From Escherichia coli (GTDB lineage: Bacteria; Pseudomonadota; Gammaproteobacteria; Enterobacterales; Enterobacteriaceae): DNA of 64,000 nucleotides. The notes below the pieces were generated by a model. It made no database searches and was not told the DNA's origin. It worked only from the letters and a program-made list of their open reading frames with translations. The position numbers and the translations under genes were made by a program. Of the stretch, positions 34,224 to 54,567 are shown piece after piece. The stretch lies in assembly GCF_024223415.1 (NCBI RefSeq), contig NZ_CP100500.1; one strand, written 5' to 3'. The first letter of the stretch is position 1. Each line of letters starts with the position of its first letter.

Positions 34224-34971
34224 AGTAATGACTCCGGTCAGTAGTACATGTGCTTCGATAAATGAACCAATGGCTTTTCGTTAATTTCCACGGAGCGTGA
34301 AAAGCAAATCGTTTTCAGGGATGGGAGTTTGATGTGAGTACGAAGTATCAGATTGTTGCGCTCAATGCGCCGGGTAAATATCCTGCCGACAGGATGCTTA
34401 TCCTGTGGTACTTCTCTGGTATAACTGCACCAGTTTTCACTGGTTATCATGCCTGAGGAGAATGGCTTCAGAAGTTCCGGCAACTCACTACATGTTTCAT
34501 CAGTACGAGGACCAAAAGTGTAAGCCCGCACACCGCCAGATTTGGTGTTATACGCATACCAGAGCCAGTGCTGACGAGCTTTGTTTCCGACAAAGCTCCA
34601 TTGTTCATCAAGTTCGCATATAAGCGCCACATCGGCACTGGCGACTGGAGATGTGGTTACTTTGCATGGTGAGCGTTTTTTAAAGTGCGAATGACTGTGT
34701 TGATACCCACCTTCAGTGTTCTGGAGGTATCGCGAACCCCGGTTCCGTTATGAGCCATTTCAACGATTTGCTCTTTAACACTTGGTTTTCGGGCTTCGCA
34801 GGTGTAATTCAGTTGAAATACACGTTTGCAGGAGCGGCACTGGAAACAGTGCTGTGACCGTGACGGTACACTTTATCGGAATTACAGCGGGGACAATGTA
34901 CGGTAACTGTTGCCATATGGACTCCGGATACCAACAGAATACCCCATTAATCTGCCCCCGGAAGTCATCCC
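34224..34971 (-). mobile_element. IS1-family insertion sequence, divergent copy with frameshifted insA
   Basis: Terminus AGTAATGACTCC at 34224-34235; InsA-like start at 34916; A6C frameshift motif before insB'. Confidence 0.7.
34238..34630 (-). CDS. insB: IS1 transposase InsB' segment
   Basis: ICELDEQWSFVGNKARQHWLWYAYN…RTHIKLPSLKTICFSRSVEINEK matches IS1 InsB. Confidence 0.75.
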   Translation of the reverse strand: MALICELDEQWSFVGNKARQHWLWYAYNTKSGGVRAYTFGPRTDETCSELPELLKPFSSGMITSENWCSYTREVPQDKHPVGRIFTRRIERNNLILRTHIKLPSLKTICFSRSVEINEKPLVHLSKHMYY

Positions 34972-35111
34972 GGTGCCTTCTGACATAATCTGTTAATACA
35001 TGAATTATTGCCCTGTTCAGAAAATATTAATTAAAAAATGAAAACCAGTTAACAGAAAAGCCACATGACATAATGTTAAAATTTTATATCGTGCAATAAA
35101 AGGAGAATGTT

Positions 35112-36938: not shown

Positions 36939-36961
36939 ACAGGAAAATTATTTTTTATAAA

Positions 36962-36986
36962 CAGGGGATTATTGAGTAATCCCCTG
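36962..36986. terminator. Hairpin CAGGGGATTA-N5-TAATCCCCTG between the convergent 608-aa ORF and int
   Basis: Perfect 10-bp inverted repeat; T-run on the minus-strand side. Confidence 0.5.
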
Positions 36987-37122
36987 CTCATCAAAACCCA
37001 CTTTCCTGACAATCTGATAACTATCAGCTCAATACATTTGACATAAAAGAGATCCCTTAATTATTACCGTTACGGTCACAATCACATATCAAATCATGAT
37101 TGTACAATATACATTTTCACTA

Positions 37123-38325
37123 TTATTTATTCATAATCTGAGACATCACATAATCCGCCCATGCCTGCATCATCGGTACACGCTGCTCCAGTAGATCAGT
37201 ACGATGATATGCCGCCTCAACCTTATTTTTCAGCGTATGAGCGAGCGCCCTTTCAGCCAGATCCCGCGAATACCCCTGCTCACTACACCAGTCCCTGAAT
37301 GTTGAACGAAAACCATGTGCCGTGGCGACTCGCCCCGGAATATCACTGACGGCTTTCTTTTTACGCAGAAAACTGGTCAACACCATATCTGAAAGGATCT
37401 GCTGCTTTCTGGGTGAAGGAAACACCAGTTCATCATGCAGACCACGTATATTTTCCAGAATGTAAATAGCCTGTCGGGATAAAGGAACACGATGCTGTAC
37501 CCTGGCTTTCATTCTTTCTGCTGGTATCGTCCATATCTGCTTATGAAAATCAATTTCAGTCCAGCGCATTCCCCTGGCTTCACCCGAGCGGGTTGCTGTA
37601 AGTATCACCATTAATAACAATGCGCGGGTAACATTATAGGGTTCATCGGTATACACACTGGTCGCCACAAAAAGCGGTAACTGCCTCCATGGCATTGCGG
37701 GTTGGTGTTCATCACGTCCTCTTGTCTGCTGGGGAAGCAAATGATCAACCACATCCACAGGATTTGCCACACAAAAACCATGTGCCCATCCCCACTGCAT
37801 AACAACATGAATGCGCTGTTTAACCCGGCTTGCCGTTTCTGACAAAGTTAACCAGACTGGCCGCAGTGTTTCTGCCACGTCCGCAGCCGTAATCGAATCC
37901 AGCGTTTTCGCTCCCAGTTGAGGAAAGGCGTAATTCTCAAGCGTCGATAACCACTGCCGGACATGCTTTGGATTTTCCCATCCAGGAGACAGTTCTGCAT
38001 GTACACGTCTGGCTGCATCGGCAAATGTTGGGATAACAACTTTTTCAGCCTCAGCCTTTTTAATCTCCAGAGGATCATCACCAGCAGCAAGTTGCTCTCG
38101 CATTATCCGGGCAGTACGTGCAGCTTCAGCAATGCTGATCTCAGGGTAAGTTCCCAATCCAGCATTACGCCTTTTTTGTGTCACCGGACTTACATAACGA
38201 AAAACCCATTTACCCCGACCCTTTACTGAAGAAGGATGAAGGGTCAGTCCTGTAATTCCCCCATGGGGCAATGGTTTGTCATCAGGTTTGATATGCCTTG
38301 CTTTCGTATCCGTCAATACTGCCAT
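37123..38325 (-). CDS. int: Tyrosine-type site-specific integrase (P4/CP4-57 IntA-like)
   Basis: IntA-like N-terminus and C-terminal catalytic region (…HGFRSTFRDW…, …LAHTLKNKVEAAYHR…). Confidence 0.9.
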   Translation of the reverse strand: MAVLTDTKARHIKPDDKPLPHGGITGLTLHPSSVKGRGKWVFRYVSPVTQKRRNAGLGTYPEISIAEAARTARIMREQLAAGDDPLEIKKAEAEKVVIPTFADAARRVHAELSPGWENPKHVRQWLSTLENYAFPQLGAKTLDSITAADVAETLRPVWLTLSETASRVKQRIHVVMQWGWAHGFCVANPVDVVDHLLPQQTRGRDEHQPAMPWRQLPLFVATSVYTDEPYNVTRALLLMVILTATRSGEARGMRWTEIDFHKQIWTIPAERMKARVQHRVPLSRQAIYILENIRGLHDELVFPSPRKQQILSDMVLTSFLRKKKAVSDIPGRVATAHGFRSTFRDWCSEQGYSRDLAERALAHTLKNKVEAAYHRTDLLEQRVPMMQAWADYVMSQIMNK

Positions 38326-38343
38326 ACGCTAATTCCTGTTACT

Positions 38344-38367
38344 CTGGTATGCCATCTGGTATGCCAT
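38344..38367. repeat. Tandem 12-bp direct repeat CTGGTATGCCAT x2 upstream of int
   Basis: Two exact adjacent copies; possible integrase arm-type or promoter element. Confidence 0.5.
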
Positions 38368-38485
38368 TATCTTCACGCTTCAGTCAGAATACAGTAGATG
38401 ACATCAGACAGTAAAATATGCAATATACTGTTTATAATCAAATTTTATGACACAACAGGACTCATTCAGATTCATTTCAGGCGGT

Positions 38486-38499
38486 CCCCCTCACCGCCA
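38486..38499 (+). other. 3' remnant of tRNA-Ser (serW-type att core)
   Basis: CCCCCTCACCGCCA matches the last 14 nt of E. coli tRNA-Ser(GGA); the remainder of the tRNA is absent upstream. Confidence 0.5.
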
Positions 38500-38543: not shown

Positions 38544-38692
38544 CATTTTATCTGCCTGTACGGCAGTGAACATGGTGGGCGGGTGGAGTATGTTACCAGT
38601 GAATTTCTAAGCTGCCTGTACGGCAGTGAACGTTTGCTGCAACCGCTAGCCAAGACGGTAGGTTTTTCTAAGCTGCCTGTACGGCAGTGAAC
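38544..38692 (-). CRISPR. Orphan type I-F CRISPR mini-array (3 repeats, 2 spacers, no cas genes in window)
   Basis: Two exact copies of TTTCTAAGCTGCCTGTACGGCAGTGAAC (38604-38631, 38665-38692) plus a degenerate copy ending at 38571; spacers of 32-33 bp. Confidence 0.8.
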
Positions 38693-38903: not shown

Positions 38904-41180
38904 TTAATGCGCTGCTTCCGCCTTGTGCTTTTGTGCACTCTGAAATCCGTAAGTCAGCTCATTTTTCTCTTTATCCAGCGCGACGGTGACCTGACCGCCG
39001 TCCACCAGCGAACCAAACAGCAGTTCGTTGGCAAGCGGTTTTTTCAGGTTGTCCTGGATGACACGCGCCATCGGACGAGCGCCCATTGCCCGGTCGTAAC
39101 CTTTCTCGGCCAGCCAGTTACGCGCTTCCTGGCTCACTTCCAGAGAAACACCTTTCTGATCCAGCTGAACCTGCAACTCGACGATGAATTTATCCACCAC
39201 CTGATGGATCACGTCAGTTGACAGATGATCGAACCAGATAATGTTGTCGAGACGGTTACGGAATTCCGGTGTAAAGATCTTCTTGATCTCTTCCATCGCA
39301 TCGGTGCTGTTATCCTGGTGGATAAGACCAATGGATTTGCGCTCAGTTTCCCGTACCCCGGCGTTAGTGGTCATCACCAGTACCACGTTACGGAAGTCCG
39401 CTTTGCGTCCGTTGTTATCGGTCAGCGTACCGTTGTCCATCACCTGCAACAGAATATTGAACACGTCCGGATGCGCTTTCTCGATTTCGTCCAGCAGCAG
39501 CACCGCATGTGGATGCTTGATGACCGCATCAGTCAGCAAACCGCCCTGATCAAAACCAACGTATCCCGGAGGCGCACCAATCAGACGGCTGACGGTATGG
39601 CGTTCCATATACTCGGACATATCAAAGCGCAGAAGCTCAATGCCCAAAGCTTTCGAAAGCTGTACCGTCACCTCTGTTTTCCCGACCCCGGTAGGACCGG
39701 CAAACAGGAACGAACCGACCGGTTTATGTTCGTGACCTAAACCTGCACGCGCCATCTTAATGGCTTCAGTCAGCGCCTCAATGGCTTTATCCTGACCGAA
39801 GACCAGCATTTTCAGGCGATCGCCGAGGTTTTTCAGGGTATCGCGGTCACTCTGAGAAACACTCTTCTCTGGAATGCGTGCAATACGGGCCACCACGGAC
39901 TCAATATCCGCCACATTAACGGTTTTCTTGCGTTTGCTTACCGGCATCAGGCGTGCGCGAGCGCCCGCTTCGTCGATAACATCAATCGCTTTATCCGGCA
40001 GATGACGATCGTTAATGTATTTCACCGCCAGCTCTACCGCCGCACGCACCGCTTTTGCGGTATAACGCACGTCGTGGTGCGCTTCATACTTCGGTTTCAG
40101 GCCATTGATGATTTGAACAGTTTCTTCGATCGACGGTTCAGTAATATCAATTTTCTGGAAGCGACGCGCCAGAGCACGGTCTTTCTCGAAAATGTTGCTG
40201 AACTCCTGATAGGTTGTCGAACCAATTACGCGAATTTTACCGCTGGAGAGCAACGGTTTGATTAGGTTAGCCGCATCGACCTGACCACCAGACGCTGCAC
40301 CCGCACCGATAATGGTGTGGATCTCATCAATAAACAGGATGCTGTTAGTGTCCTGCTCCAGCTGCTTGAGCAACGCTTTAAAACGTTTTTCAAAGTCGCC
40401 GCGATATTTTGTGCCCGCTAACAGAGAACCGATATCGAGAGAGTAAATCGTACAGTCAGCCATCACTTCCGGCACATCGCCCTGAACAATTCGCCAGGCA
40501 AGACCTTCTGCAATCGCGGTTTTACCGACACCAGATTCCCCCACTAGCAGCGGGTTGTTTTTACGGCGACGGCAGAGAACCTGAATAGCACGCTCCAGCT
40601 CCTTCTCACGACCAATCAGTGGGTCGATTCCGCCCACGCGCGCAAGCTGATTCAGGTTCGTCGTGAAATTCTCCATACGTTCCTCCCCACCAGCTTGTTC
40701 TTCGCTGTTTGGCTGGCTGCCAGGATCAGAAGACTGTGTCGGCTCGTCTTTACGCGTGCCATGAGAGATAAAGTTCACCACATCGAGACGGCTGACTTCA
40801 TGTTTACGCAACAGATATGCCGCCTGCGACTCCTGTTCGCTAAAGATAGCGACCAGAACGTTTGCACCGGTAACCTCATTGCGACCGGAGGACTGGACAT
40901 GGAAGACCGCACGTTGCAGTACACGCTGAAAACTCAGCGTCGGCTGTGTGTCGCGCTCCTCTTCACTGGCAGGCAGAACGGGTGTGGTTTGTTCAATAAA
41001 GGCTTCCAGTTCCTGACGGAGCGCAACCAAATCCACAGAACACGCTTCCAGCGCCTCCCGGGCAGATGGGTTACTGAGCAGCGCCAGTAACAAGTGCTCG
41101 ACGGTCATAAACTCATGACGGTGCTCGCGCGCTCTGGCGAAAGCCATATTTAAACTGAGTTCCAGTTCTTGATTGAGCAT
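38904..41180 (-). CDS. clpA: ATP-dependent Clp protease ATP-binding subunit ClpA
   Basis: Matches E. coli ClpA throughout as recalled ([24 protein letters not shown]…); two AAA+ modules. Confidence 0.95.
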
Positions 41181-41210
41181 AGGCACCTCCCCCAATTTTT
41201 ATGCCTGCAT

Positions 41211-41531
41211 TCAGGCTTTTTCTAGCGTACACAGCAATGGATGCTCATTCTCCCTCGCGTACTTGTTCACCATCGCCACTTTGGTTTCTGCAACCTCGGC
41301 GGTAAAGACTCCGCAAATGGCCTTCCCCTGGTAGTGAACAGCGAGCATCAATTGCGTTGCACGTTCTACATCATAAGAAAAGAATTTTTGTAACACGTCA
41401 ATAACAAACTCCATCGGAGTGTAATCATCATTGACTAATATCACTTTATACATAGATGGCGGTTTTAGCGCGTCGCGAACTTTTTCTTCCGCCAGTTGAT
41501 CAAAGTCCAGCCAGTCGTTCGTTTTACCCAT
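41211..41531 (-). CDS. clpS: ClpS adaptor protein
   Basis: 106 aa matching E. coli ClpS ([43 protein letters not shown]…). Confidence 0.95.
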
Positions 41532-41615
41532 TGTCAGTTATCATCTTCGGTTACGGTTATCGGCAGAACGCCCTGCCGCTGACAAGAGCTTATTTGCCTG
41601 ACCAATCTACTCCAC

Positions 41616-41637
41616 ATGATAGATAACTATCATTTAT
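41616..41637. repeat. Left attachment-site direct repeat ATGATAGATAACTATCATTTAT
   Basis: Matches the right repeat at 52086-52107 at 20 of 22 positions. Confidence 0.6.
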
Positions 41638-42554
41638 ATCATTTAGTTAATTAGTCTTTATTTTTCATTATGTTGCAAATAACAAGCCCGTCAAAAACAG
41701 TGATATTAACTACACCATTAACTACACCGCTTCACGAACAATATCGAACAACCGCGAACAAAGATCAACACGCTTTAATCATTATCATTTTCCGGCTATC
41801 CGTCATGAAGCTGGTGGATGATCTGCGTGGTGATTTCCACCATTCAGAGCAGGTGCGGTCATCATGACCATGCCATAACAAAAACCCCATATTCGTGGTT
41901 TTTCTGTGTCGGGGCTATTCTGCTGTTGCCGTGCTGGTGGATATTCTCCGGTATGCGGCTCCCCATATCGGCATCAGGCCCACCAGCGTGAAGCGTTTTT
42001 CATTTTTCGCGGGTATAAAAAATCGATGGGGCGGGCAGTCCTGAAGACGTCAGGGTACAGAGATTTGACCCGCCCCTCCCTGTGCATGAGCACAATAAGT
42101 AACCGAAGGCGGAATTCCGCCCTCGGTACTTACATATGAGAAACGATATTTCTTCCACCGATACCCTTTATTTGGGTATCGCGAGTAAGCCCCAAAATCT
42201 GGGTGTTACTCTTACTACCCAAACTACGGGTAGTTTCCGTAGTTTCATGGTCGAGTTGCAAATCTGCAACTCACCCACCAGCCAGCGCAATGTCGCATTA
42301 TCAGTCCTCAGATGTGAGGGATGTAGCCAGCTTTTCCCCCAGTGGGGATTATCCAGTTACCGACGGTTTAACCGCCTGTACCAGCACAACGAAAGAATTT
42401 GCGGGTAGCTTTAAACTACTCACAACATCCCATCTTACAGGCCGTGCCTTTCTAACTTTTTACAATGCAATAAGTCAGGTAACGCTATGCGTTCCACCGT
42501 GTACACCGCGCCAGTAAAACCCCCGGATTCGTGGTTTTCCTGAATATCAGGAAT

Positions 42555-42929
42555 CTACCGCCGCAACCGTTCCGGCTTCTTCCACTGATAAGTGTTTTTC
42601 GCGCTCTCCCTCCGTTGTTGAGAACGGCGACGGTATGCCAGCAACTCAAGGACTCTGGTTCGTATGTTGCGCATATCCACGCCGTTAAGCTCAATACCAT
42701 CACGGCGCATCACCTCAGCAACAACACACGCGTAATTTTCGGCTATCACGCTGTCCGGCTGCGTGGCCTCCTGTTCGCCAGCCTGCTGGCTGATTCCGGT
42801 AATACTGCGGATTATCCCGAGCGCTTCGGTCTCGGTCATGGTCATGGCCTCCATAGTGATGGCGGGTCCTCCTTGTGGGGTGCCCTGCCACGGGGCGGGA
42901 GCATCGCGGAAAAAGGCTAGTTTTTGCAT
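42555..42929 (-). CDS. Hypothetical protein (PICI accessory end; start uncertain)
   Basis: ORF only; no motif recognised. Confidence 0.35.
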   Translation of the reverse strand: MQKLAFFRDAPAPWQGTPQGGPAITMEAMTMTETEALGIIRSITGISQQAGEQEATQPDSVIAENYACVVAEVMRRDGIELNGVDMRNIRTRVLELLAYRRRSQQRRESAKNTYQWKKPERLRR

Positions 42930-43090
42930 TTTTATTCGTTATCACCACCAATGCAATATATTGATATGACTTGATGTTTTATTTTTCGGTGTCGATTTCG
43001 ATTGTTTTTTGTTCATCACTGACGCATAACGCCCACCAGCGCAACGCTGAAAGCCAGTCAGTAAACTGGCTTCGGTCATTGTGCACTACG

Positions 43091-43618
43091 TTACTTGTCT
43101 TTATCCGGCTGAAACTTATCAGGCACATTTCCGGTAGTTTCCATCAGATAATCGGACAGCATTCGCGGGATGTTTTCATCAAGTTTTGTGCATGCGTTAC
43201 AGGCTCTGACAACTTCTTTTTTCAGGCCATCCAGCATGGCGGGGGTCATCTGTGGGAAGCTCCTTTGCATAGTAAGCGGGAGGCTGTCCATGATTGATGA
43301 AATCTGACTCGCCAGTTTTGAAAGCGCGTACATGCAAAACTCTGTATCAATCACGTCACCGCGATCGCGCTCGTTTTTAAGTTCCTGCGCCTCCGCCTGT
43401 GCTGTCAGTAATCTGATCCTGACTCGTAAAAGTTCATCATCGTCAATCTCGCCTTTGTCGTTTGTAATCTGGCTGATTGCATTGTTAACCCGATTATCTA
43501 TTACACTGGCGACATCATAAAACGTCTCACGGCCCTTACGCTCGACGGGAATCACTCCCCACTTATCGAACGCAGTGGCGCTTACTCGGCAGCTTTTCGC
43601 CATGTTTTTTTTATTCAT
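43091..43618 (-). CDS. Small-terminase (lambda Nu1-like) homologue, candidate packaging-redirecting protein
   Basis: Collinear with lambda Nu1 as recalled (N-terminal HTH region, then …LTAQAEAQELKNERD…DTEFCMYALSKLASQISSIMDSLPLTMQRSFP…). Confidence 0.8.
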   Translation of the reverse strand: MNKKNMAKSCRVSATAFDKWGVIPVERKGRETFYDVASVIDNRVNNAISQITNDKGEIDDDELLRVRIRLLTAQAEAQELKNERDRGDVIDTEFCMYALSKLASQISSIMDSLPLTMQRSFPQMTPAMLDGLKKEVVRACNACTKLDENIPRMLSDYLMETTGNVPDKFQPDKDK

Positions 43619-43699
43619 CAGGTGCGATTTCATCAATACCCCCACTTAATTAATGCTTCAGGTTGGTGTGTTGGTGTTATCTTTCCATTTTTATTCATA

Positions 43700-43840
43700 G
43701 AGATAGAGCGAACAACAAAACCACCACCAACCCGAAAAGGCTCATAAATAGCGAAAATCCGCAAGGTCGACGCCCCGTAACGGGTCCACATGCCGGAAAG
43801 GACCCATAAAAAATAAAGCCGGACTACTCCGGCTTCGTCT
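43700..43840 (-). other. Lambda-type cos site (cosQ-cosN-cosB-like)
   Basis: Minus strand reads GGGTCCTTTCCGG…GTTACGGGGCGTCGACCTTGCGGATTTTCGCTATTTATGA, near-identical to the lambda cos region as recalled. Confidence 0.7.
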
Positions 43841-43858
43841 CTTCATGTGGTCAGGGTT

Positions 43859-44443
43859 TTATGCTTTCCGTACGCCCGAGGAACTGGCATTTTTCAGAAT
43901 AATATTATGCCCTGCTGGTGGCTTACCGTTATGCTTATTTTCTGCCTTCATGTTTCTGCGCTCCTGCTGTTTTTTCTTCATCTCATCCAGTCGCTTCCCC
44001 GCGTTCAACTGGTGCTCCTGTGTCACCTCCCCGCACGGATGGCCTTTCAGGTCGTAACGCACGCCACCAGCCATCAGGGAACGGTAATATCGCACTGAAC
44101 TGACATAATACGCCAGCGTTGCGCGAAGCGCTCCCTGACCTAATGAAATACCTCTCGCAGTAATATCCTCCATCAGGTCATCAAATATGCCAACCTTAAG
44201 CGGTCTGGGCGATTCCTGGCTGAAAAGTTCAGGCCAGAGCGCGGCAAGGCGTTCAACGCGTCTGATATTTTTTTTCCGGCTCTTTTCTGATTTGCGTTTT
44301 GCTGCCGTCTTCTGTTGTGTTTTCTGCTCGCGGCTCTGCTTTTGCGCTGGTGTGGTTTTATCCGGCTGTTCAGCCTCCTGCGTCTTTTTCTGCGGTGTGC
44401 CGTATATGCCTTTTGGTTTTCGGTTAATGGTCAGCTTTGTCAT
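43859..44443 (-). CDS. ProQ/FinO-domain RNA-binding-like protein
   Basis: Basic Lys-rich N-terminus followed by LAALWPELFS…PLKVGIFDDL… typical of ProQ/FinO domains. Confidence 0.55.
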   Translation of the reverse strand: MTKLTINRKPKGIYGTPQKKTQEAEQPDKTTPAQKQSREQKTQQKTAAKRKSEKSRKKNIRRVERLAALWPELFSQESPRPLKVGIFDDLMEDITARGISLGQGALRATLAYYVSSVRYYRSLMAGGVRYDLKGHPCGEVTQEHQLNAGKRLDEMKKKQQERRNMKAENKHNGKPPAGHNIILKNASSSGVRKA

Positions 44444-44522
44444 GTTCTCCCCCTTTGTGCTGTTCCACCAGCGGCATCTGCTACCCCGTGTCGCTCCCGC
44501 TGGTGTCGTGTTTCCCCGCCTG

Positions 44523-44843
44523 TTAATAACCGTCATCATTTACGTTATCAGGGTAATCACGCCATATTTCATCAGTAAGCGACGGTAGCCCCATCTGTTG
44601 TATTGTCCTGTCTGCGGCCCTTCTGACTGCGTGAACATCATAACGGTTTTCAGGTATCGGGCGCTTTGCCTTCCTGATACATTCCCTTGCTCTCATTGCC
44701 GCAAGTTCTCTGTGCCTGTCTTCCTGAAGAGTAATCATCACATCCTGCCACCTTCTGGCAGCCCGTCGCCACAGTCCCCTGCTCTCGAGTTCTTCTGCTG
44801 TCGCGTCGCTTATTGTCCGGTTCTTCGGTGTGCTGTTGTTCAT
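44523..44843 (-). CDS. PerC-family transcriptional activator-like protein
   Basis: …AEELESRGLWRRAARRWQDVM… PerC-like signature. Confidence 0.55.
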   Translation of the reverse strand: MNNSTPKNRTISDATAEELESRGLWRRAARRWQDVMITLQEDRHRELAAMRARECIRKAKRPIPENRYDVHAVRRAADRTIQQMGLPSLTDEIWRDYPDNVNDDGY

Positions 44844-44860
44844 GTTGCTCCCCGCCTGAT

Positions 44861-45271
44861 TCAGAAGGGTATATCATCTCCGTAGGGGTCATCGCCTCCC
44901 GCTGGTGGCTTATTCCCCTGTGCGCCTGTGGTTTTGCGTGTTTTTCCGCCCGGTCGCACTGTCCGCGCACTGATTACGCTGTCTGCGATAACCTGCCAGC
45001 CCTGCCGCGTTTCCCCGTTCTGTCCGGTCCACTGGCTCACCTGCATGTTACCCGCCACGCTCAGGAGTTCACCCTTGCGGTGCTTTGCCAGTGCTTCGGC
45101 CTGTCTGCCAAACGCCAGCACAGATAACCACATCGTCGCCGTTCCGTCATCTGCCTGGCTGCACGGAAGGGGGACCGCCATACTCGCCATCGCCATTTGT
45201 GTCCCCTTGCTGGTGGTCTTTAACTGCGGGTCAGCCACCAGCCGCCCGTAAGCCGCTATCTGTGCTGTCAT
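44861..45271 (-). CDS. ssb: Single-stranded DNA-binding protein (SSB-like)
   Basis: OB-fold-like N-terminus and Gly/Pro-rich tail ending in the acidic DDIPF motif. Confidence 0.75.
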   Translation of the reverse strand: MTAQIAAYGRLVADPQLKTTSKGTQMAMASMAVPLPCSQADDGTATMWLSVLAFGRQAEALAKHRKGELLSVAGNMQVSQWTGQNGETRQGWQVIADSVISARTVRPGGKTRKTTGAQGNKPPAGGDDPYGDDIPF

Positions 45272-45525
45272 GCTGTATGCTCTCCGGTTTTAACGTTGAT
45301 GGTTGTCACCTGTTCCGCTCCGGCAATCTCCCGTTCTGTCAGCGTGGCAAAATTTGCCGCTACCGTTGTCATGAATGCGCTTATCAGTGCGGGATGTGCT
45401 TTCGCGTATCCTTCTCCCGCGCTGCGGTCGATAATTTTTATCGCCACCCTCAGCCAGTGCTCTGTAAGGTCAATGGCGCGGTTATGTGGTTTCTTCTGAT
45501 TATTAAGTTTTCCTGATGTGTGCAT
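45268..45525 (-). CDS. Hypothetical protein (85 aa)
   Basis: ORF coupled by overlap to ssb. Confidence 0.4.
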   Translation of the reverse strand: MHTSGKLNNQKKPHNRAIDLTEHWLRVAIKIIDRSAGEGYAKAHPALISAFMTTVAANFATLTEREIAGAEQVTTINVKTGEHTA

Positions 45526-45569
45526 TTTTATTTTTACCCCCTCGTTTAAAAAGTTTTGTGTTGTGGTGC

Positions 45570-45805
45570 ACCTCCTCTACCTCTCTACACAATCATCTTT
45601 CAGGTCAGTAATGGCGCGGCTTTCAGCGGGGTAGAGGGCTTTTTTGGCCCTCTACCTGCCATCTACCACCCCCTCACAAATGCCCTGAATTATGGTAGAG
45701 GGTGTAGAGGGCTTTTAAGTACCTTCTACCTGCCATCTACCCAATCTATCAACATGAAATATATGTAATTATTTTCTTAAGGTAGAAGGGGTAGAGGGCT
45801 TTTGT
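45570..45805. repeat. Iteron cluster, candidate replication origin of the island
   Basis: GTAGAGGGCTTTT x3 (45631, 45704, 45790) and CT(C/T)CTACCTGCCATCTACC x2 (45651, 45724), directly downstream of the replication gene. Confidence 0.6.
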
Positions 45806-45811
45806 CTAAAA

Positions 45812-47560
45812 CTATAAAAACGCGTCGCAGTCGTCTGTTGTTGTCACGTTGGTTTGCGTAACCCCTTTAATCCTGCGCGTTATATATTCATGTCCGTAAA
45901 CTTTCGCCGCTGGCTTCATGGCCTTGCTGAACTCAGCCACGTTCAGCGGTTTGCTCCTGCCTGCATACGCCATAAACGCCAGATAGACGCGGTAAAGGCT
46001 GTTTCTGGTCGTGTACTTCACGGAATCGCCACCGCCCCCCATCATCAGGCCACGTGCTTCCTCCAGAAAATTCAGGAACTGGCAAAACTCAATAACCGGA
46101 TCCGTTTGCTGCTTTATCGCCAGTGCTTCATCACCGTCACGCTGTTCCAGTAGTAAAGCCCGCGCCTTTTCAGGGTCTGCAAAGTTCGCCAGTAATCGGC
46201 GGATAATGACGGGGATTTCAGCCGCAATCCTTTCCGGTAGCTCCCTGTCTTTTTCAGCCTCACTGACGATATTGTCGAAACGAAAAATCACGCGACGACG
46301 TGCCACACCTCCGGCCCGTTCGGTGAATATCATCGGGTTATTGTTGGTCGCCAGCACCACCGCCCTGATTACAGCCGTGAAACGCTTTTCGTATTTCGGG
46401 TTAATTTCCACGGGGTCACCGCCCGTGATTTTCTTGATGCCCGTTCCTTCGCCTGTATATTTCGGCTGGTCTGCCAGGACGATAAGACGACTCCCGACAA
46501 CCTGCGCACGCCCACCAGCATCATCAAGCGATGTCATCTCAGCGCTTACCGTGTTCTGTTTCCCTGCCAGAAGGCTGGCTATGTGCGTGAATGTACTTTT
46601 ACCGCTCCCGCCGTCTCCGGTGGCCTCAATAAACATCTGCCAGTCGTACCGGTTCGCCATAATCATGTACAGCGCGGCACATATACGCATCATCTTGCGC
46701 GGGTCTTTTCCGGCTGCGTGCTCAAGCCATTTATGAAAGTTTGGCGCGTTATCGCGGATGTTCTCCCCAGGTGCTGGTGGCGTGTACTCAATGCCATTGT
46801 GCGTGGTGATCCAGTTCTCCGGCGTGTGCGGGGAAAATTCCCCCGTTTTCAGGTCAAGCGCACCATTGGCGAACGGCAGCAAATCGCCGGACGGCTCGCC
46901 CATTGGTTCGGCAATAACTTTTAACGCTTCCACGGCGTTATTGATTACGCGCTTGCTGAAAGTGGCCCTGTGCTCTGAATAGATCGCCACCATTTCGCGG
47001 CTCAGTTCCATTGTGCTGACCGGACACCATACCCCGCCGCGCCATACGTGAACGATTTCACTTTCCGGATGCACACAAACGCCATCAAATCGACCAGCAA
47101 GCATCTGTGCGCGCTCACTGTCTGCCATTTGTGCCAGTTGCGTATTTTTCTGCTCCGGCATGGTAAGCCCTGCAGCAATATTTTCACGCTCAGCATTCAG
47201 ATAACGCCGCCAGTTTTCACACTTCTGACCGTGCATTCCTTCGGGGTAAAAATTTGCGTCCTGTACGCCAGCCGCCGCCAGCTTCTGACCAATCGCCTTT
47301 ATCATTACTGGCGCAAGATATCCGGCCCTGAATATACGCACGGATTTTCTGCCTTCCGGCACAATTTGCAGCTTATCCAGTTCGGATAACTGCTGCTCCC
47401 CAAGCCACACAGGAGGCTCATTATCTCCGGCCATACGCGCGTCATGTTCCTGCCATTGTTTCGCGTGTGCCCAGGCATCACTACCCGCAAAAATAATGAC
47501 TTCAGTTCCTTTGTGTTTTATGCCGCGTGACTGCAGTTTTACGTTCGGTGCCAGTTTCAT
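45812..47560 (-). CDS. Replication protein with SF3-type helicase domain (P4-alpha/D5-like primase C-terminal region)
   Basis: Walker A ATGDGGSGKST and Walker B-like RLIVLAD in the C-terminal half. Confidence 0.8.
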   Translation of the reverse strand: MKLAPNVKLQSRGIKHKGTEVIIFAGSDAWAHAKQWQEHDARMAGDNEPPVWLGEQQLSELDKLQIVPEGRKSVRIFRAGYLAPVMIKAIGQKLAAAGVQDANFYPEGMHGQKCENWRRYLNAERENIAAGLTMPEQKNTQLAQMADSERAQMLAGRFDGVCVHPESEIVHVWRGGVWCPVSTMELSREMVAIYSEHRATFSKRVINNAVEALKVIAEPMGEPSGDLLPFANGALDLKTGEFSPHTPENWITTHNGIEYTPPAPGENIRDNAPNFHKWLEHAAGKDPRKMMRICAALYMIMANRYDWQMFIEATGDGGSGKSTFTHIASLLAGKQNTVSAEMTSLDDAGGRAQVVGSRLIVLADQPKYTGEGTGIKKITGGDPVEINPKYEKRFTAVIRAVVLATNNNPMIFTERAGGVARRRVIFRFDNIVSEAEKDRELPERIAAEIPVIIRRLLANFADPEKARALLLEQRDGDEALAIKQQTDPVIEFCQFLNFLEEARGLMMGGGGDSVKYTTRNSLYRVYLAFMAYAGRSKPLNVAEFSKAMKPAAKVYGHEYITRRIKGVTQTNVTTTDDCDAFL

Positions 47561-47856
47561 TTTTTACCCCTGAATCCGTTAATCATGGTTTTCATCTTCT
47601 GAATATTGGCGCGTGCTTTCTCCCTGCTGGTGGGCACGTTACGCGGTACGGCCTGCACAAGAGAAAAATCACGCACAAACTGATAAACAGGCATCACGCA
47701 ATCATATTCGTAACCTTCATGGCGGTAGGTGATGCGCCGTTCTGCCACGCCTTTAATCGTTACCGTACCGCCGTAGTTATCACGGAAAATATCGCCGGGA
47801 CGGATTTCAGGCCGAGTGAGGCCGCTGGCAGTAAAGCCAGAATTTTTCTTTTTCAT
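47557..47856 (-). CDS. Hypothetical protein (99 aa), overlap-coupled to the replication gene
   Basis: ORF with 4-bp overlap to the downstream gene. Confidence 0.45.
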   Translation of the reverse strand: MKKKNSGFTASGLTRPEIRPGDIFRDNYGGTVTIKGVAERRITYRHEGYEYDCVMPVYQFVRDFSLVQAVPRNVPTSREKARANIQKMKTMINGFRGKK

Positions 47857-48052
47857 GGTTTTATTTTCCTGTCAGTGATTCCGGCTTTATTCCGGCGCGA
47901 ATACAGGCTTCAGAAAAAAAGCCAGAGAACCAATAACCTCATTATTTCTAAGGCGGCATTGCGATTTCACTTTCCCTTTATCCAGGAATATCAAAACGCG
48001 CCCCGTATAATCAGATGGCACATTAAGCACTACAGGTAAGTGCGCTTCATGA

Positions 48053-48340
48053 TTATTCATGGCTAACCACCTCCTGGAATTTTCTTCTGTAACGCGCCTC
48101 TGCCACATATTCAGCATAGTCCGACGCAATATTGAGAATATCGCTACCCGTTCCTGAATGTTCGGCGGTTTCCAGTAAAAAACATGCAGCTTTTACCATG
48201 TCAGCAACACATAACAGCGCAATATCTGTATCTTCCGGTGTGCCATCAAATTCCTGTTTCAGGGCATTAAAACGATCATCACGCATAACCCCATATTCAC
48301 AATCAGCAATCAGGATGGCTTTGGCCTCATTCAGTGCCAT
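48053..48340 (-). CDS. Hypothetical protein (~95 aa; only plausible part of the long ORF 48053-50041)
   Basis: C-terminal segment reads like protein while the rest of the 662-aa frame is low-complexity; start at ATG 48340 assumed. Confidence 0.35.
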   Translation of the reverse strand: MALNEAKAILIADCEYGVMRDDRFNALKQEFDGTPEDTDIALLCVADMVKAACFLLETAEHSGTGSDILNIASDYAEYVAEARYRRKFQEVVSHE

Positions 48341-49381
48341 ATCAGCGGTAAGCTGTGCGTAGGCCAGCAAATGCGGGATTATTGCCCCTGTATATTCCGG
48401 CTCTCTGATAATGTGGTCGGATGTGTTGATTAAATAGTTTGTGCGAAAAATGCACCTGTAACCATCAGTTAACAACGGATATACAGGGGGGACCATGAAT
48501 GATAAGGGGGTGCCGTTTGATGTGCTCCTGCAAAAGCTGAATGCTGCACGCGCCGCAAGGGAACGTGAGCGCATGAGTAATAACCCTGTCCCTCCTGAAT
48601 TACCTCGCCCTGAACATTTTCCGCTTGAGGATTTCATCAGGGGACGAATCCGAACAAAACGATAACCGCCGCCGTGATATGAGGCATCACGACGCAATGC
48701 ATTACAGGTGAGCACCATGAACAAATCCATATTATCCCCCACAGTTCTGGACGTAAACACAAAGCAGCGACAGATATTATTACGCGCCGTCATTAAAGCC
48801 AGACACGAGAAATTAAACCAAATCTTAAAATAAGATACGCCGCTACCGCTGTAAGTCTTCATCAGAAACAGAAAACGCCAGAGCAGATGAGCACGGAGGT
48901 AACTCTTTATGAAAATAAACGAATCAGGGGAAATTACCGAAGCCAGCGTGGTACGCCAGCGGAGGCGGGAACGACGGGTACGGCCCCCCGCGCCATCCGA
49001 TAATTTCCCGCTTGAGCGCTTCATCAGTGAACGGCCCCGCATACGCTGGAACGGCACAACCCCATACCCCGAGGAGAGACAGACAAAAAACAAACAGCGA
49101 TGATGAAATCTGGAGGCCAATACCATCACCCAGCCAGTCGGGGATTGCTGGCGGGCTTCCTGTTCGCTGGTGGCCCCGATGGTAATAACGCGTGGTTGTG
49201 CTGTGCTCAGGGCGATAAAACGCCAGATGTATTTATTCAGGTTGTGCGGGTCCCGCCCTTGCGGGTGTGTGGTATGATTTAACATAGCTACCTCGATACG
49301 CTTTCTATCGTTGGTGGTTAGAAGCCCCGTTACTGCTCCAACAGTGCGGGGTTTCGTCGTTTCTGCACCTTTCATCAACAA

Positions 49382-49435
49382 GGTGTTGAACACCAATTTA
49401 AGCCTAGGTGTTAAACACGCCAAGTGTTGAACACT
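49382..49435. promoter_or_regulatory. Three operator-like palindromes (GGTGTTGAACACC / GGTGTTAAACACG / AGTGTTGAACACT)
   Basis: Three 13-bp near-identical inverted repeats within 55 bp, in the regulatory region downstream of alpA. Confidence 0.5.
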
Positions 49436-50051
49436 TATTTTTTTTCCTGCATACTGCATTTGTTTTTTGTAAGGGGTACACAACATGGCGACAAAAGCAG
49501 TAAACGCAAAATCACAAACAGTTGCGGCAAGGGTTCCGCATGAAGTTATGAACAATGTTGAGGCGGTAAAAATGCCTGGTGAAAGTACAGGGCAGTTTGT
49601 AACAGCAGCATTAAAGCGAGAAGTTGAATACCGCCAGCGCCGCAAGGCCAAAGAATCAGAATAATCACTATCAGCGCCGTGGTGTGAGGTACTGCGGCGC
49701 ATTGTTTTAAAGGTGATAATTATGAATAACCAGGAACTACAAAATAAAGCATTATCAATTATCATGCGCCAGCGTGAGAAAACCCGCAGGGAAATAAATA
49801 AGGCATTAACCCGTACTGAAAATCTTAAAGTTCCTGATAAGTTCGCCCTTGATCCTTTTGTCGAGAAATACCCTCGGCGCTTAAAAGCAAACAAAAACCG
49901 CCCACCTGGCTGACAATCCACCAGCAAGCCACCACACTGGACACATTGCCCACCAGCCAGCAAATCGCTATGATGTTCGGGCTTATGTTTAGTGTTTTCC
50001 CATTGGCGACCGCCCCCGGTCGCCTTTGTTTTATGTGTCATATACTCCCCT

Positions 50052-50348
50052 TTACGCTGCCTTGCCTGAATTAATGCGATCCCGGCTTTTAACCCATTCC
50101 ATAACCTCGGACAGCAGCCAACCTACAGAACGCCCACCAAGATTACGGCGAGACGGAAAGCTCCCTTTTTTCTCCAGTTCGTAGCGTGTAGTGCGACACA
50201 CTCCAGTTAACTTACGACATTCATCCTCACGGATTACGCGATCTTCATTTATTTCACGCATACAAAAACCTACATAAAAATTACGTATATAAACTTTTCT
50301 CTTAGCTGTAGATATATGAGATCGGATATTACTTAGATTCTTTTTCAC
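50052..50348 (-). CDS. alpA: AlpA-family regulator/excisionase-like protein (start uncertain)
   Basis: …RKLTGVCRTTRYELEKKGSFPSRRNLGGRSVGWLLSEVMEWV… AlpA signature; the 50348 start is GTG. Confidence 0.6.
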   Translation of the reverse strand: MKKNLSNIRSHISTAKRKVYIRNFYVGFCMREINEDRVIREDECRKLTGVCRTTRYELEKKGSFPSRRNLGGRSVGWLLSEVMEWVKSRDRINSGKAA

Positions 50349-50680
50349 CTCTTAAATTAAAAACACAACCATGCTAAAGGCTTTGTTCGCTAAGGTTCGT
50401 AGAAGCTCGTTAGTGTTTAAAATCGTGTCACGAGTTTTTAAGCGACGCAACAAAAAATGTCGTCATTTGGCATGTCACCTGAATTACCTCATTAAAAACA
50501 AATAGATAAACCATCAGATGTTGGAACAATCAAGAAACAGAGAATAAGAACTCAGAAGAAGACATTTCAATTTTTTTCGATAGTTGACACATATAAAGAG
50601 AAGATATTTGCAGATATTCCCCGATATTCTAAGATCTATTCACGGCTGTAATCTCTTAAAGAAAAAACAGCCGTAATTTG

Positions 50681-51919
50681 TCAAGAATTTTGGGGGTAAA
50701 TTCGCGGGGTCATAACAACGATTTTTTCATCATTGTTCTGGAGAAGCTCGAGACGGTCTACCCATAGATTAAGAGCGTCACGCTTTGCATCGAGATAACG
50801 GGAGTGGTTATAGACGCGTTGCATTCCTGGCATCTGGTGGGCAGTAAGCTGTTCAACAATATGCGGATCCACGCCTAAATCGTTCAGCATGGTTGTAAAT
50901 GTGTGCCGGATGTCGTGCAACGACCAGGGGGCTTGATTAATGCGTCTGTGTGCCGTTCTTCCGTACTCTGCTACGGATGATTGCCCTTTCAGTTCTCCAA
51001 GCAATAAGCCCGTGTGCCTGTTCTGCTCCACCAGCTTCATGACGAACGGCAAGATCGCTTCCGGTATTGGCCTGAATATTGCTACCTTCGTTTTGCTGTG
51101 TTCTTTCGGCACAGTCCAGAGCATTTCTTTAAAATCCCATTCCCGAACCTCGGAGCGTCTTAGCTCAGTGGTACGGCATCCGAAGACAATCAGAAGGCGA
51201 ATTAAAGCGCTGTAGTACGGCGGGAAAATTTTTTCATCCAGTGCGCGGAGTAGCTCGCCAAGCTCCTTGTTTGTTAGCACTCGCTCGCTTATTTCTGCTT
51301 TTTTTCCCACATCACCTACGACCATATCATCAAGAACGTTACTGACGGCGTAGCGACGTTTACGGCAGTACTTAAGCGCCTGTTTGCATACCTGCAACAA
51401 AAAGCCGGCTGATACCGGATTACGCTTAGCAAGCTGGTCAAAACAGGCCAGCCAGTGGCGTAGCTCGCATTTATCCAGCGGCATAGCACCAATCTGGCTG
51501 ATTATGTGCTTATTGATACGGCTTTTCAGTGATTCGTGGTCAGTGCGCTTTTCCTTCGCATACGACTCAAGCCAGTAAGTGAGCGCGTCCTTAACCGTCA
51601 CGGGGGCTAACGCTTCCTGCACTGTGTGATTAAGCTCATGGCGTGGATTTTTCCCCTCCGCCAGCCAGGCGCGACACTGTGCCGCTTTTTCCCTGGCTGC
51701 TTTCAGGCTCAGATCGGGATAGTTGCCCAGTCTCAGGCGTTCCGGTGATACCTGCCTGCCAGTTCCGGCCCTGTAAGTGAAATACCAGGTTAACAGGCCG
51801 CTGGTGGAATGTCTTACGCTAAGATTGCCACCGTCATTAAAAAAGGCGTTTTTTGTGGTTGGTGATCCGCTTAATTTTCGTAAAAGAGTGTCGCTAAGTC
51901 TATGAATTGCGCTGCTCAT
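50681..51919 (-). CDS. int: Tyrosine-type site-specific integrase
   Basis: C-terminal catalytic region with …LHDIRHTFTTML… and …VYNHSRYLD…; hairpin 50644-50676 downstream. Confidence 0.9.
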   Translation of the reverse strand: MSSAIHRLSDTLLRKLSGSPTTKNAFFNDGGNLSVRHSTSGLLTWYFTYRAGTGRQVSPERLRLGNYPDLSLKAAREKAAQCRAWLAEGKNPRHELNHTVQEALAPVTVKDALTYWLESYAKEKRTDHESLKSRINKHIISQIGAMPLDKCELRHWLACFDQLAKRNPVSAGFLLQVCKQALKYCRKRRYAVSNVLDDMVVGDVGKKAEISERVLTNKELGELLRALDEKIFPPYYSALIRLLIVFGCRTTELRRSEVREWDFKEMLWTVPKEHSKTKVAIFRPIPEAILPFVMKLVEQNRHTGLLLGELKGQSSVAEYGRTAHRRINQAPWSLHDIRHTFTTMLNDLGVDPHIVEQLTAHQMPGMQRVYNHSRYLDAKRDALNLWVDRLELLQNNDEKIVVMTPRIYPQNS

Positions 51920-52085
51920 GTTTCGCGTTTCCGGTCATCAAAATTAACTACACCATTGACTACACCGTGCATCGTACAAGGGCAAACCGTGACGAACAAG
52001 AGCGAACAAGTAAAACAAAATTTTCCTTTATAATCATAGCGATGAATGCACACAAAACACTACCACGAACACCCGCGAACACTAG

Positions 52086-52107
52086 ATGATAAATAACTAT
52101 CATCTAT
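52086..52107. repeat. Right attachment-site direct repeat ATGATAAATAACTATCATCTAT
   Basis: Pairs with 41616-41637. Confidence 0.6.
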
Positions 52108-52323
52108 CGTTGGCATCAGCGACATCTGTCACATTCCTGTCAATAGCGTTAACTGCTTCAAATTTTTGATTCATACCTGCCCCCTGTCCCCTGTCAAATG
52201 CTTGACGGCTCGCCCTAATTCTCTAAATTGTATTTCTAGAGTTGGCGAGGTTTTGAACAGCCCCCTCTCTGACCCCGGTTTATTCCATCTTACTTGTATA
52301 AGATTTGCGAAGGATGTCGAAGC

Positions 52324-52548
52324 ATGGAAAAGGGTACTGTTAAGTGGTTCAACAATGCCAAAGGGTTTGGTTTCATCTGCCCTGAAGGCGGCGGCGAAGA
52401 TATTTTCGCTCATTATTCCACCATTCAGATGGATGGTTACAGAACGCTAAAAGCTGGACAATCCGTTCAGTTTGATGTCCACCAGGGGCCAAAAGGCAAT
52501 CACGCCAGTGTTATTGTGCCCGTCGAAGTAGAAGCGGCAGTCGCATAG
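52324..52548 (+). CDS. cspD: Cold-shock-domain protein CspD
   Basis: MEKGTVKWFNNAKGFGFICPEGGGEDIFAHYSTIQMDGYRTLKAGQSVQFDVHQGPKGNHASVIVP matches CspD. Confidence 0.9.
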   Translation: MEKGTVKWFNNAKGFGFICPEGGGEDIFAHYSTIQMDGYRTLKAGQSVQFDVHQGPKGNHASVIVPVEVEAAVA

Positions 52549-52620
52549 CTCTTCTGTCTCATTGTGTACATCCTAAAGGCAAAATGCCAGCCCGATCGGC
52601 TGGCATTTTTATCTCAAAAA

Positions 52621-54567
52621 TTACTCTCGTGCCAGAGCATCTACTGGATCCAGTCGTGCCGCATTTCGTGCGGGTAACCAGCCAAATAAAATCCCGGTGA
52701 CCGTCGAGCAGAGAAACGCCAGCAGCAGTACCAACGGTGAAAAACCAATCTCCCAGCCGGGTAAGAAAAGCTGCAAGGTGAAAGCAATTAACAGTGACAG
52801 TGTTATTCCCAACGCGCCACCGACCAGGCAAACCAGTACGGCTTCGATCAGGAACTGTTGCAAAACATCGCTTGCTCGCGCACCTACAGCCATGCGAATG
52901 CCAATTTCCCGCGTCCGCTCGGTCACTGACACCAGCATAATATTCATTACACCAATACCGCCCACTACCAGCGAAATCACCGCCACCAGCGTCAGAAACA
53001 GTTGTAAAGTACGTGTGGTCTTTTCAACGGTTTTCAAGACGCCGTCCATGTTCCAGGTAAAGAAATCCTTCTTACCGTGGCGCAGTGAAAGTAAACGCGT
53101 GAGTTGCTGTTCCGCCTCGGCGCTGTCAAATCCTTCTTTCACCCTGACAGTAATGGAGTTCAGCCACGACTGGCCCATAACTCGCCCGGACATCGTGCTG
53201 TAAGGTAGCCAGACACGCAGCACTTTACTGCTACCAAACATCGACTGTTTTTCTTCCGCCACACCAATGACTCTGGCGGGCATATTGCCGACCAGAATCA
53301 CCTCGCCAACCACATCTGCTTTATGGGGGAAAAGCTGGCGGCGAGTATTACTGTCGAGAACCACGACCTGCGCACGACCGTTCAGCTGTTCCTGATTAAA
53401 GGTGTTTCCTTCACTGAAGGTCATGCCATAGACATTAAAATAATCGCCGCTCACGCCATTGGCACTGGCAGCAACATCAACATTGTTGTAACGCAGGCGC
53501 AGGTTTTGCGAGACGGCAGGTGTGGCTGAAGCGACCCACGGTTGTTTTTGGATGGCGATTAAGTCATCGTACTTCAGCGCCTGCTGATATTGCGGATCGT
53601 CATCGCCAAAATCTTTCCCGGGATAGACATCAATAGTATTCGTACCAATAGAACGAATATCCGCCAACACCATTTGTTTGGCGGCGTCGCCCACCACGAC
53701 AATGGAAACCACCGACGCAATACCGATTATAATCCCCAGCATGGTCAGTAAAGTACGCATTTTATTCGCTGCCAGCGCCCGCCATGCCATCGTCAGCGCC
53801 TCGTTAAAACCGCTGACAAACTGCCGCCAGCCAGACACCGTGTTGACAACAGGTTCCGTCCCGCCAGCAACATTCACTTTTTCAATGGCGGGAGGATTGC
53901 GCACAATTTCGCCGTCGCGAATTTCGATCACCCGCTCGGCCTGAGCAGCGACCTGCGGATCGTGGGTGACGATAATCACCGTATGTCCGCGATCGCGCAG
54001 CTGATGCAGGATCGCCATCACCTCTTCGCCAGAATGGCTGTCCAGTGCGCCGGTTGGTTCATCGGCAAGAATTACCTGACCGCCGTTCATCAATGCCCGC
54101 GCGATGCTGACGCGCTGTTGCTGACCGCCCGAAAGCTGTGCCGGATAATACTCTGTACGGTCTTCCAGCCCCAGCCGTTGCAGCAACTCCTGGGCGCGAA
54201 GCAGCCGCTGTTTCCGCTCAAGACCGGCATAGACGGCGGGTACTTCAACGTTCTGCTCGGCGGTTAAATGCGAAAGCAAATGGTAACGCTGGAAAATAAA
54301 GCCGAAATGCTCGCGGCGCAGTTGCGCCAGCGCATCGGCGTCCAGCGTGGCAACATCCTGACCGGCGACGCGATAGGTGCCGCTGGTGGCCTTATCCAGA
54401 CAGCCGAGAATATTCATCAGGGTCGATTTACCGGAACCCGAAGCGCCAACAATCGCCACCATCTCACCAGCATAAATATCGAGGGTGATGCCCTTCAGCA
54501 CCTCAACCTGCTCATCACCGGCAGGATAGCTGCGACGAATATCCTTTAATTCGAGCAAAGGCGTCAT
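52621..54567 (-). CDS. macB: Macrolide export ABC transporter ATP-binding/permease MacB
   Basis: 648 aa matching E. coli MacB as recalled; Walker [13 protein letters not shown] signature LSGGQQQR. Confidence 0.95.

Follow-up and report, generated by a model that had tools for sequence, protein, structure and literature searches.

A 10,470-bp island separates clpS from cspD in a stretch of 64,000 nucleotides of the Escherichia coli contig NZ_CP100500.1 (assembly GCF_024223415.1), referred to below as the window, in which it occupies positions 41616-52107. It very probably belongs to the cos-type phage-inducible chromosomal islands (PICIs) of Gram-negative bacteria, as a mosaic representative of the EcCIIHE3034 lineage whose integrase inserted it into an attB that overlaps the 3' end of a small gene, yljB. 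Both the lineage and the site are already known, since Fillol-Salom et al. (2018, Table S1) catalogue EcCIIHE3034 with cspD-clpS as its attC; new is this mosaic combination. To the definition of the family the island contributes little, but three of its features are less ordinary: a small terminase (TerS) in place of an Rpp protein, packaging sites that belong to two types of phage and a cargo gene whose product resembles RNA chaperones. Virulence regulators are spread by PICIs, which also block their helper phages, and the identity of the helper predicts an island's spread.

The insertion has precisely duplicated a 22-bp attB, into which yljB extends with its 3' end. In E. coli K-12 MG1655, where the site (clpS-yljB-cspD) is empty, a single attB is present (ATGATAGATAACTATCATCTAT), and it is exactly there that the two flanks of the window meet. 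The two att repeats are direct, with 20 of their 22 positions in agreement; what follows the left one is already island sequence. Each copy has one mismatch to attB, the left at position 19 and the right at position 7, and this placement on opposite sides is what is expected if the crossover took place within the ATAACTATCAT shared by attB and attP. The reverse complement of that stretch, ATGATAGTTAT, is the published att core of EcCIIHE3034 and EcCI18098 at cspD-clpS. As two-copy families of short repeats are numerous in the window, a 22-bp repeat is by itself weak evidence; it is the comparison with the empty K-12 site, and not the repeat alone, that lifts the att duplication above chance. 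The right repeat covers the end of yljB; the insertion target is thus a gene's 3' end, and the gene remains intact. An earlier reading of the DNA, made without database searches (the sequence-only reading), had described a PICI-like satellite that splits clpS and cspD between 22-bp direct repeats, and had named absent repeats or collinearity with a full prophage as observations that would speak against it. Repeats are present at both ends, albeit imperfect, and the split is real, with the refinement that yljB also lies between the island and cspD.

Further repeats are found in the two arms of the island. Two copies of ATTAACTACACC and phased CGAACA motifs are common to both arms, and EcCICFT073 has the 25-bp ACTACACC block with 100% identity, despite its different core att site. 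These arm repeats are candidate arm-type sites for the integrase (Int) and candidate AlpA/Xis sites.

Each item of the gene order given by the sequence-only reading (int, alpA, small open reading frames (ORFs), replication protein, iterons, ssb, perC, ProQ/FinO-like gene, cos, Nu1-like terminase gene) was confirmed, and the RefSeq annotation of a 99.9%-identical island in strain Br_112_kylling has the same layout (Table 1). Every core gene is full length. The gene next to int is alpA, whose longest ORF extends to 50348, and an iteron origin lies directly 3' of the primase gene, matching the definition of a PICI origin. The exact motif GTAGAGGG occurs five times in this origin and once elsewhere in the window, compared to 0.9 copies expected for the whole window. 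Beyond the 94-aa gene the island ends in a non-coding tail of about 900 nt. Neither the RefSeq annotation nor PHROG scans revealed a gene for a portal, capsid, tail, holin, endolysin, lysis protein or large terminase (TerL) in the island, TerS being the sole phage-type morphogenesis gene.

Taken together, size, gene content and gene order support the classification as a cos-type Gram-negative PICI. All sequence-level features that Fillol-Salom et al. (2018) give for this group were found: an att-flanked element in the range of 8-15 kb, AlpA by int, Pri-Rep with 3' iterons, no structural genes and a packaging determinant. Helper-dependent induction, packaging and high-frequency transfer and interference with the helper, which also belong to the definition, are expected for the island from its relatives. 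The PICI core used by SatelliteFinder consists of int, a regulator, pri-rep, terS and a capsid-morphogenesis gene, and tail, holin, portal and connectors are forbidden (de Sousa et al., 2023). Applying this rule by hand, we counted four of the five core components with the capsid gene absent, which would make the island 'Type B', and saw none of the forbidden components in the island annotation and the PHROG scans. From the set that defines capsid-forming PICIs (cf-PICIs), namely their own capsid, protease, portal, head-tail adaptors, HNH, TerS and TerL, the island has TerS only.

A P4-like satellite of P2-type phages or a defective remnant of a lambdoid prophage could also account for some of the parts, namely the P4-family primase and integrase, alpA and the icd-like gene as well as the lambda-like cos and Nu1. 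Satellite P4 indeed resembles the island in having an integrase and a primase-helicase of these families, an alpA-type regulator and a length of about 10-11 kb. However, homologues of sid, psu, delta and epsilon are missing from both the RefSeq annotation and the PHROG scans, and with them the psu-delta-sid operon; the cos is of lambda type and not of P2 type, and no plasmid state is known. A prophage remnant is contradicted by the lack of a repressor/lysis/morphogenesis layout: there are no structural, tail or lysis genes and none for TerL, portal or holin. The gene order, moreover, is that of EcCICFT073, and we consider either origin extremely improbable.

The sequence-only reading had suggested a comparison with published E. 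coli PICIs, and this comparison points to the same classification: the island is collinear with EcCICFT073 and shares 87-94% backbone identity with EcCIIHE3034. With EcCIIHE3034 it has in common the attC at cspD-clpS, the att core and the cosB. At the nucleotide level the identity is about 94% for int-alpA, about 88% for pri-ssb and about 87% for terS-cos1, and the TerS proteins are 85% identical. In contrast to the island, EcCIIHE3034 carries genes for a major capsid protein, a head decoration protein and a 137-aa protein where the island has perC and the ProQ/FinO gene; its cosN is perfect and its inverted second cos (cos2) intact, and it lacks both an 83-bp cos of SfV/P27 type and a 700-bp segment that are described below. 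The collinearity with EcCICFT073 comprises int, alpA, the YlcI/YnfO pair, the icd-like gene, the DUF4222 gene, pri, ori, the 85-aa gene, ssb, perC, cos1, the packaging-specificity gene and a 93-aa gene, and the lambda-type cosQ/cosN and identical arm repeats are shared as well. EcCICFT073 differs in its attC (ycfD-phoQ), its cosB, its capsid and decoration genes and in encoding RppA, which needs the TerS of the helper, instead of TerS. A third group, the E. coli PICIs of the fS54a/GN06489 type, is alike in the tail, which is 99.3% identical from attL to 42302 including the SfV/P27-type cos, and in the 93-aa last gene. These islands, in contrast, have a DUF1441 TerS (phrog_141), a ClpP-capsid (protease-capsid) fusion and no lambda-type cosN.

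The gene downstream of cos1 is, judged by its sequence, a genuine full-length small terminase in the slot of Rpp. The Nu1-like terminase homologue of the sequence-only reading is thereby borne out and sharpened to a complete TerS. Its product shares 47% identity with N15 gp1 and 37% with lambda Nu1 over 86-94% of the length. The alignment with Nu1 extends through a C-terminal LDExIPxLLxxY segment, the part by which lambda Nu1 binds gpA.

Cos PICIs of E. coli with an Rpp protein are packaged after Rpp heterodimerises with the TerS of the helper (Fillol-Salom et al., 2019). If the island followed this route, its Nu1-like protein would pair with the helper TerS instead of replacing it. The gene does sit in the exact RppA slot of EcCICFT073, just downstream of cos1, and according to the literature Rpp and TerS have a common N-terminal wHTH fold. 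But the island protein shows no similarity to RppA by BLASTP (E = 1.3; control RppA vs RppC, 5e-31), and searches of PDB sequences with TerS and with the 137-aa protein of EcCIIHE3034 returned no Rpp (including RppC), Nu1 or other match. Moreover, Rpp proteins are shorter (144-153 aa) and dimerise through a different domain (literature), whereas the island protein has 180 aa and aligns with Nu1 up to the C-terminal, TerL-binding end. Heterodimer packaging of this kind is therefore very unlikely for the island.

The packaging site itself fits a TerS of the island's own. Positions 43710-43811 match the lambda cos region with about 80% identity, and the cosQ-like box together with the first 30 nt past cosN is conserved with lambda, EcCICFT073 and EcCIIHE3034. 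The cosB, in contrast, is common only to the TerS-bearing EcCIIHE3034 and is not found in lambda or the Rpp-type EcCICFT073. The cosN variant of the island is also present in 13 loci of IMG/VR, of which the examined ones are satellite-like, indicating that it is not a private lesion. At the position of the inverted cos2, both EcCICFT073 and EcCIIHE3034 have a perfect GGGCGGCGACCT, whereas the island reads GGGCGGGAGCAT, with 5 of 12 positions different and no match within 2 mismatches.

The tail of the island contains a candidate for a second packaging signal. This 83-bp block matches SfV, SfII, SfIV, SfI, ST64B, phiP27 and related prophages, a type with HNH-dependent packaging and a TerS of the P27 family. 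The cos-site annotated in phiP27 falls inside the block, whose centre, flanked by the inverted GGGGCGGG and CCCGCCCC, corresponds to the two ends of the SfV genome; the polarity of the block is that of cos1. Since the homology ends sharply at both edges, no HNH or terS coding sequence came along. Among 5426 complete E. coli genomes, 242 contain the tail context with the block; the examined copies belong to PICIs inserted at clpS and thiM, with a DUF1441 TerS and without a lambda cosN. This suggests that the block may be a cassette for additional packaging by HNH-dependent terminases of the SfV/P27/ST64B type and hence by a second family of helpers. No description of PICIs with cos sites of two types was found in the part of the literature covered, where absence is not proof.

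Several observations weigh against an active PICI. The exact variant of the island is rare, being present in 5 of the 5426 genomes and always at the same site; no helper prophage was found in the 64-kb window; and no published functional work on a TerS-bearing E. coli PICI was found, and helper, induction, excision and transfer are deduced from homology. In addition, there are possible signs of decay, namely the mismatch in cosN, the degenerate cos2, the absence of the capsid and decoration module that EcCIIHE3034 and EcCICFT073 possess, and a lineage-specific replacement that alters the 3' end of the icd-like gene and removes the 5' end of the adjacent phrog_2512 gene. An island that is a PICI by descent and now a decaying, immobile remnant with purely vertical inheritance would fit this picture. 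On the other side, all core genes are full length, the cosN variant persists in diverse satellite-like loci, and the att copies keep the exact recombinant pattern. The 83-bp foreign cos is still 92-95% identical to working phage cos sites. Furthermore, cos2 is dispensable in EcCICFT073 and the capsid genes are not needed there: c1499::cat test islands were transferable, and deletion of c1499 or c1500 left interference unrelieved. We therefore regard a decaying remnant as unlikely, though as the most serious of the alternatives, and favour the classification as a PICI with full-length core genes.

For EcCICFT073, AlpA-dependent induction, replication from pri-ori and cos-dependent transfer by lambda and phi80 have been shown experimentally, and a life cycle of the island can be proposed by analogy. 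A lambdoid helper in lytic growth would switch on alpA. AlpA would activate the leftward operon and, together with Int, excise the island, regenerating the attP ATGATAAATAACTATCATTTAT. For replication, the parts are all in place: the P4-family primase-helicase is expected to fire the iteron origin with the assistance of the single-stranded DNA-binding protein, leading to concatemers. The TerS of the island would bind the island-specific cosB and recruit the gpA-type TerL of the helper via its conserved C-terminus, whereupon the helper TerL would cut at the lambda-like cosN. Most likely, packaging follows the scheme of the Staphylococcus aureus pathogenicity islands (SaPIs), in which the satellite's own TerS is paired with the helper TerL, as in the pac strategy of SaPI1 and SaPIbov1; no helper TerS would be needed, and no Rpp-TerS heterodimer would be formed. 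Because capsid and size-redirection genes are missing, the island would be packaged as multimers in full-size helper heads. Four island units amount to 41.9 kb. This corresponds to about 86% of the length of the lambda genome and is within the packaging limits of lambda. This raises the question whether E. coli cos PICIs with a true TerS bypass the TerS of the helper, in contrast to the Rpp paradigm.

A more far-reaching idea, which we hold only tentatively and consider rather doubtful as a whole, is that the island and the satellites with its tail in roughly 240 sequenced E. coli genomes are two-helper satellites, with packaging signals for two unrelated terminase systems. Here, the lambda-type cos would be read by the island's own Nu1-type TerS with a lambdoid TerL and the captured SfV/P27/ST64B cos directly by HNH-dependent terminases, and the ProQ/FinO protein might act as an RNA chaperone on island, helper or host RNAs. 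A bare captured helper cos used by HNH-dependent terminases has a counterpart in SaPIbov5, which is reportedly packaged by both pac and cos helpers. These likenesses concern the way of working, as the SaPIs are unrelated in sequence, reside in Gram-positive hosts and are controlled by Stl repression; in the island, both signals are of cos type and the TerS belongs to the Nu1 family. Whether a second, foreign cos broadens the range of helpers is a further question raised by the island.

The PerC-family regulator and the ProQ/FinO-family protein are proposed to be cargo. Their genes follow pri-ori, in a region known as a hotspot of accessory genes in PICIs, and PerC is listed among the accessory genes of E. 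coli PICIs (Fillol-Salom et al., 2018). The sequence-only reading had placed both genes outside the minimal set as possible accessory functions; the accessory status holds for both, while PerC turned out to be a PICI accessory already known. The ProQ/FinO gene, which is followed by a terminator, also comes after ssb in a capsid-forming PICI of E. coli tcmA_3 (7906-8436), and related sequences in about 75 of the 5426 genomes indicate that this cargo recurs among E. coli satellites. In the literature, which was covered in part, we found no study of ProQ/FinO in E. coli satellites; the one related statement was a brief reference to a ProQ/FinO-like regulator of Vibrio satellite-plasmids. PADLOC gave no defence-system match of any weight for ten accessory proteins. 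The role of an RNA-binding protein of the ProQ/FinO type in a satellite is another question that the island raises.

Table 1. Features of the island and its flanks (positions in the window).
Feature	Position	Strand	Evidence or remark
clpS	41211-41531	-	left flank
Left att repeat, clpS side	41616-41637	none	ATGATAGATAACTATCATTTAT (= ATGATAGATAACTATCATtTAT); 21/22 vs K-12 attB
Left-arm repeats	41705-41760	+	2 x ATTAACTACACC (12-bp spacing), 3 x CGAACA (10-bp spacing); repeat listing
SfV/SfII/ST64B/phiP27-type cos region, 83 bp	41998-42080	-	92-95% identical to HNH-terS intergenic region of phages
Hypothetical 94-aa gene, last of late region	42555-42839	-	phrog_1561; homologues at same position in EcCICFT073, EcCIIHE3034 and fS54a-type PICIs
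Degenerate remnant of inverted second lambda cos (cos2)	42890-42908	-	alignment to relatives
Small terminase TerS, Nu1 homologue, 180 aa	43091-43633	-	Pfam Phage_Nu1 1.6e-21; phrog_57 9e-53
cos1	43646-43812	-	lambda-like cosQ-like box, cosN, divergent cosB
cosB of cos1, inverted pair	43725-43732 and 43661-43668		GGTTGGTG
cosN of cos1	43764-43775		GGGCGTCGACCT; one mismatch to lambda
cosQ-like box of cos1	43793-43805
Terminator after ProQ/FinO gene	43815-43836
ProQ/FinO-family protein	43859-44443	-	NCBIfam ProQ 4e-21, FinO 6e-21; RefSeq annotation of the 99.9%-identical island
PerC-family regulator	44523-44843	-	RefSeq annotation, PHROG
Single-stranded DNA-binding protein (ssb)	44861-45271	-	TIGR00621 7e-15; phrog_44
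Hypothetical 85-aa gene	45268-45525	-	phrog_1231; conserved, also in EcCICFT073 and EcCIIHE3034
Replication origin	45575-45805	none	at least 10 GGTAGA(G/A)G iterons, both orientations, around AT-rich stretch
Pri-Rep, P4-family primase-helicase	45812-47560	-	TIGR01613 3e-31; phrog_864 7e-169; Pfam D5_N, DUF5906, Pox_D5
DUF4222 protein	47557-47856	-	RefSeq annotation, PHROG; upstream of pri in relatives too
phrog_340 homologue	47887-48060	-	small conserved gene
phrog_2512 homologue, 5' end cut off	48053-48418	-	homology to other islands ends near 48415
Lineage-only segment, ~700 bp	48419-49115	+	in 9/5426 complete E. coli genomes
Small ORFs in 700-bp segment	48495-48665, 48717-48833, 48909-49103	+	Shine-Dalgarno-like sequence before all three
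Icd-like domain	49085-49285	-	NF033153 1.4e-13; phrog_6196
YlcI/YnfO gene	49485-49664	+	NF041551 2e-16; terminator 49674-49700 follows
63-66-aa ORF	49713/49722-49913	+	terminator at 50005-50024
alpA, AlpA-family regulator/excisionase	50052-50261	-	Pfam Phage_AlpA 1.2e-15; phrog_2790; RefSeq coordinates
Tyrosine integrase, 412 aa	50681-51919	-	phrog_1 1e-67; Pfam Phage_integrase, Arm-DNA-bind_3
Right-arm repeats	51943-52081	+	2 x ATT(A/G)ACTACACC, 2 + 2 CGAACA at 10-bp spacing; repeat listing
Right att repeat, yljB/cspD side	52086-52107	none	ATGATAAATAACTATCATCTAT (= ATGATAaATAACTATCATCTAT); last 8 nt of yljB inside
yljB, small gene between island and cspD	52100-52174	-	last 8 nt in right repeat
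cspD	52324-52548	+	right flank

Between alpA and the DUF4222 gene lies a zone of about 2 kb with small genes, including the Icd-like domain and genes on the opposite strand. For the lineage-only segment of about 700 bp in this zone no phage match was found, and its sequence is identical in the sole diverged relative that carries it. In the RefSeq annotation, the Icd-like domain is part of an ORF of 410 aa (48053-49285), while its homologues in relatives comprise about 67 aa. The minus frame through this domain, which is antisense to the YlcI/YnfO pair, is free of stops for 690 codons (48053-50122), compared to 11-19 stops in the other minus frames over the same stretches. An equivalent frame is open in EcCIIHE3034 (333 codons, 9298-10296), EcCICFT073 (434 codons, 2752-4053) and a cf-PICI (399 codons, 11994-13190). 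Three results nevertheless argue against a real long protein. A PHROG scan of the translated frame gave no family match in the island and only a short anti-repressor remnant in EcCICFT073. The codon usage is neutral, the best frame of the 700-bp segment scoring about 0 vs 0.25-0.29 for real genes. Finally, 49286-49484 has no excess of third-position substitutions, indicating that this stretch evolves as non-coding, though it remains stop-free.

The plus strand of the same zone carries the YlcI/YnfO gene and a small ORF, a pair that is also present in EcCICFT073. The ORFs starting at 48495, 48909 and 49713 and the EcCICFT073 counterpart all combine a stretch rich in Arg with a subsequent F-x-L-(E/D)-x-F motif, a likeness that points to a small putative family of paralogues. 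The second of them (48909-49103) had no homologue in a large protein database and was not itself listed there; gene callers evidently call the minus strand at this position.

An Rfam scan of 41000-53000 found no C4/CI-type immunity RNA; its matches were limited to a leader of cspA type at cspD and a snoRNA that matched by chance. The cspA thermoregulator model matched the leader and gene of cspD (52219-52612) below threshold, with 41.6 bits vs a gathering score of 78, as expected from paralogy.

Outside the PICI, the left 38 kb of the window hold other islands. At 38604-38692, just downstream of clpA, there is a pair of CRISPR-DR4 repeats (Rfam RF01317; 50 bits for either copy), probably the residue of the type I-F array known at clpA-infA. 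A second integrase gene, of P4 type, lies at 37123-38325, and the homology to the Br_112_kylling chromosome stops at 38486. The island next to this integrase, in the stretch from about 27600 to 38486, contains an ORF for a PrimPol-helicase (27604-29955; relatives are annotated as TOTE conflict-system primase-domain protein), a YfjI-family gene and an IS1. ARAGORN found no tRNA gene in the whole window, while relatives have a tRNA-Ser gene (serW) near clpA. Positions 1-27000 are occupied by accessory metabolic genes for a GABA transaminase, an L-lactate dehydrogenase with a permease, a D-threonate kinase, an aldehyde dehydrogenase, a sigma-54 regulator and an IS21 transposase, which replace infA-aat-cydCD, the genes that follow clpA in relatives.

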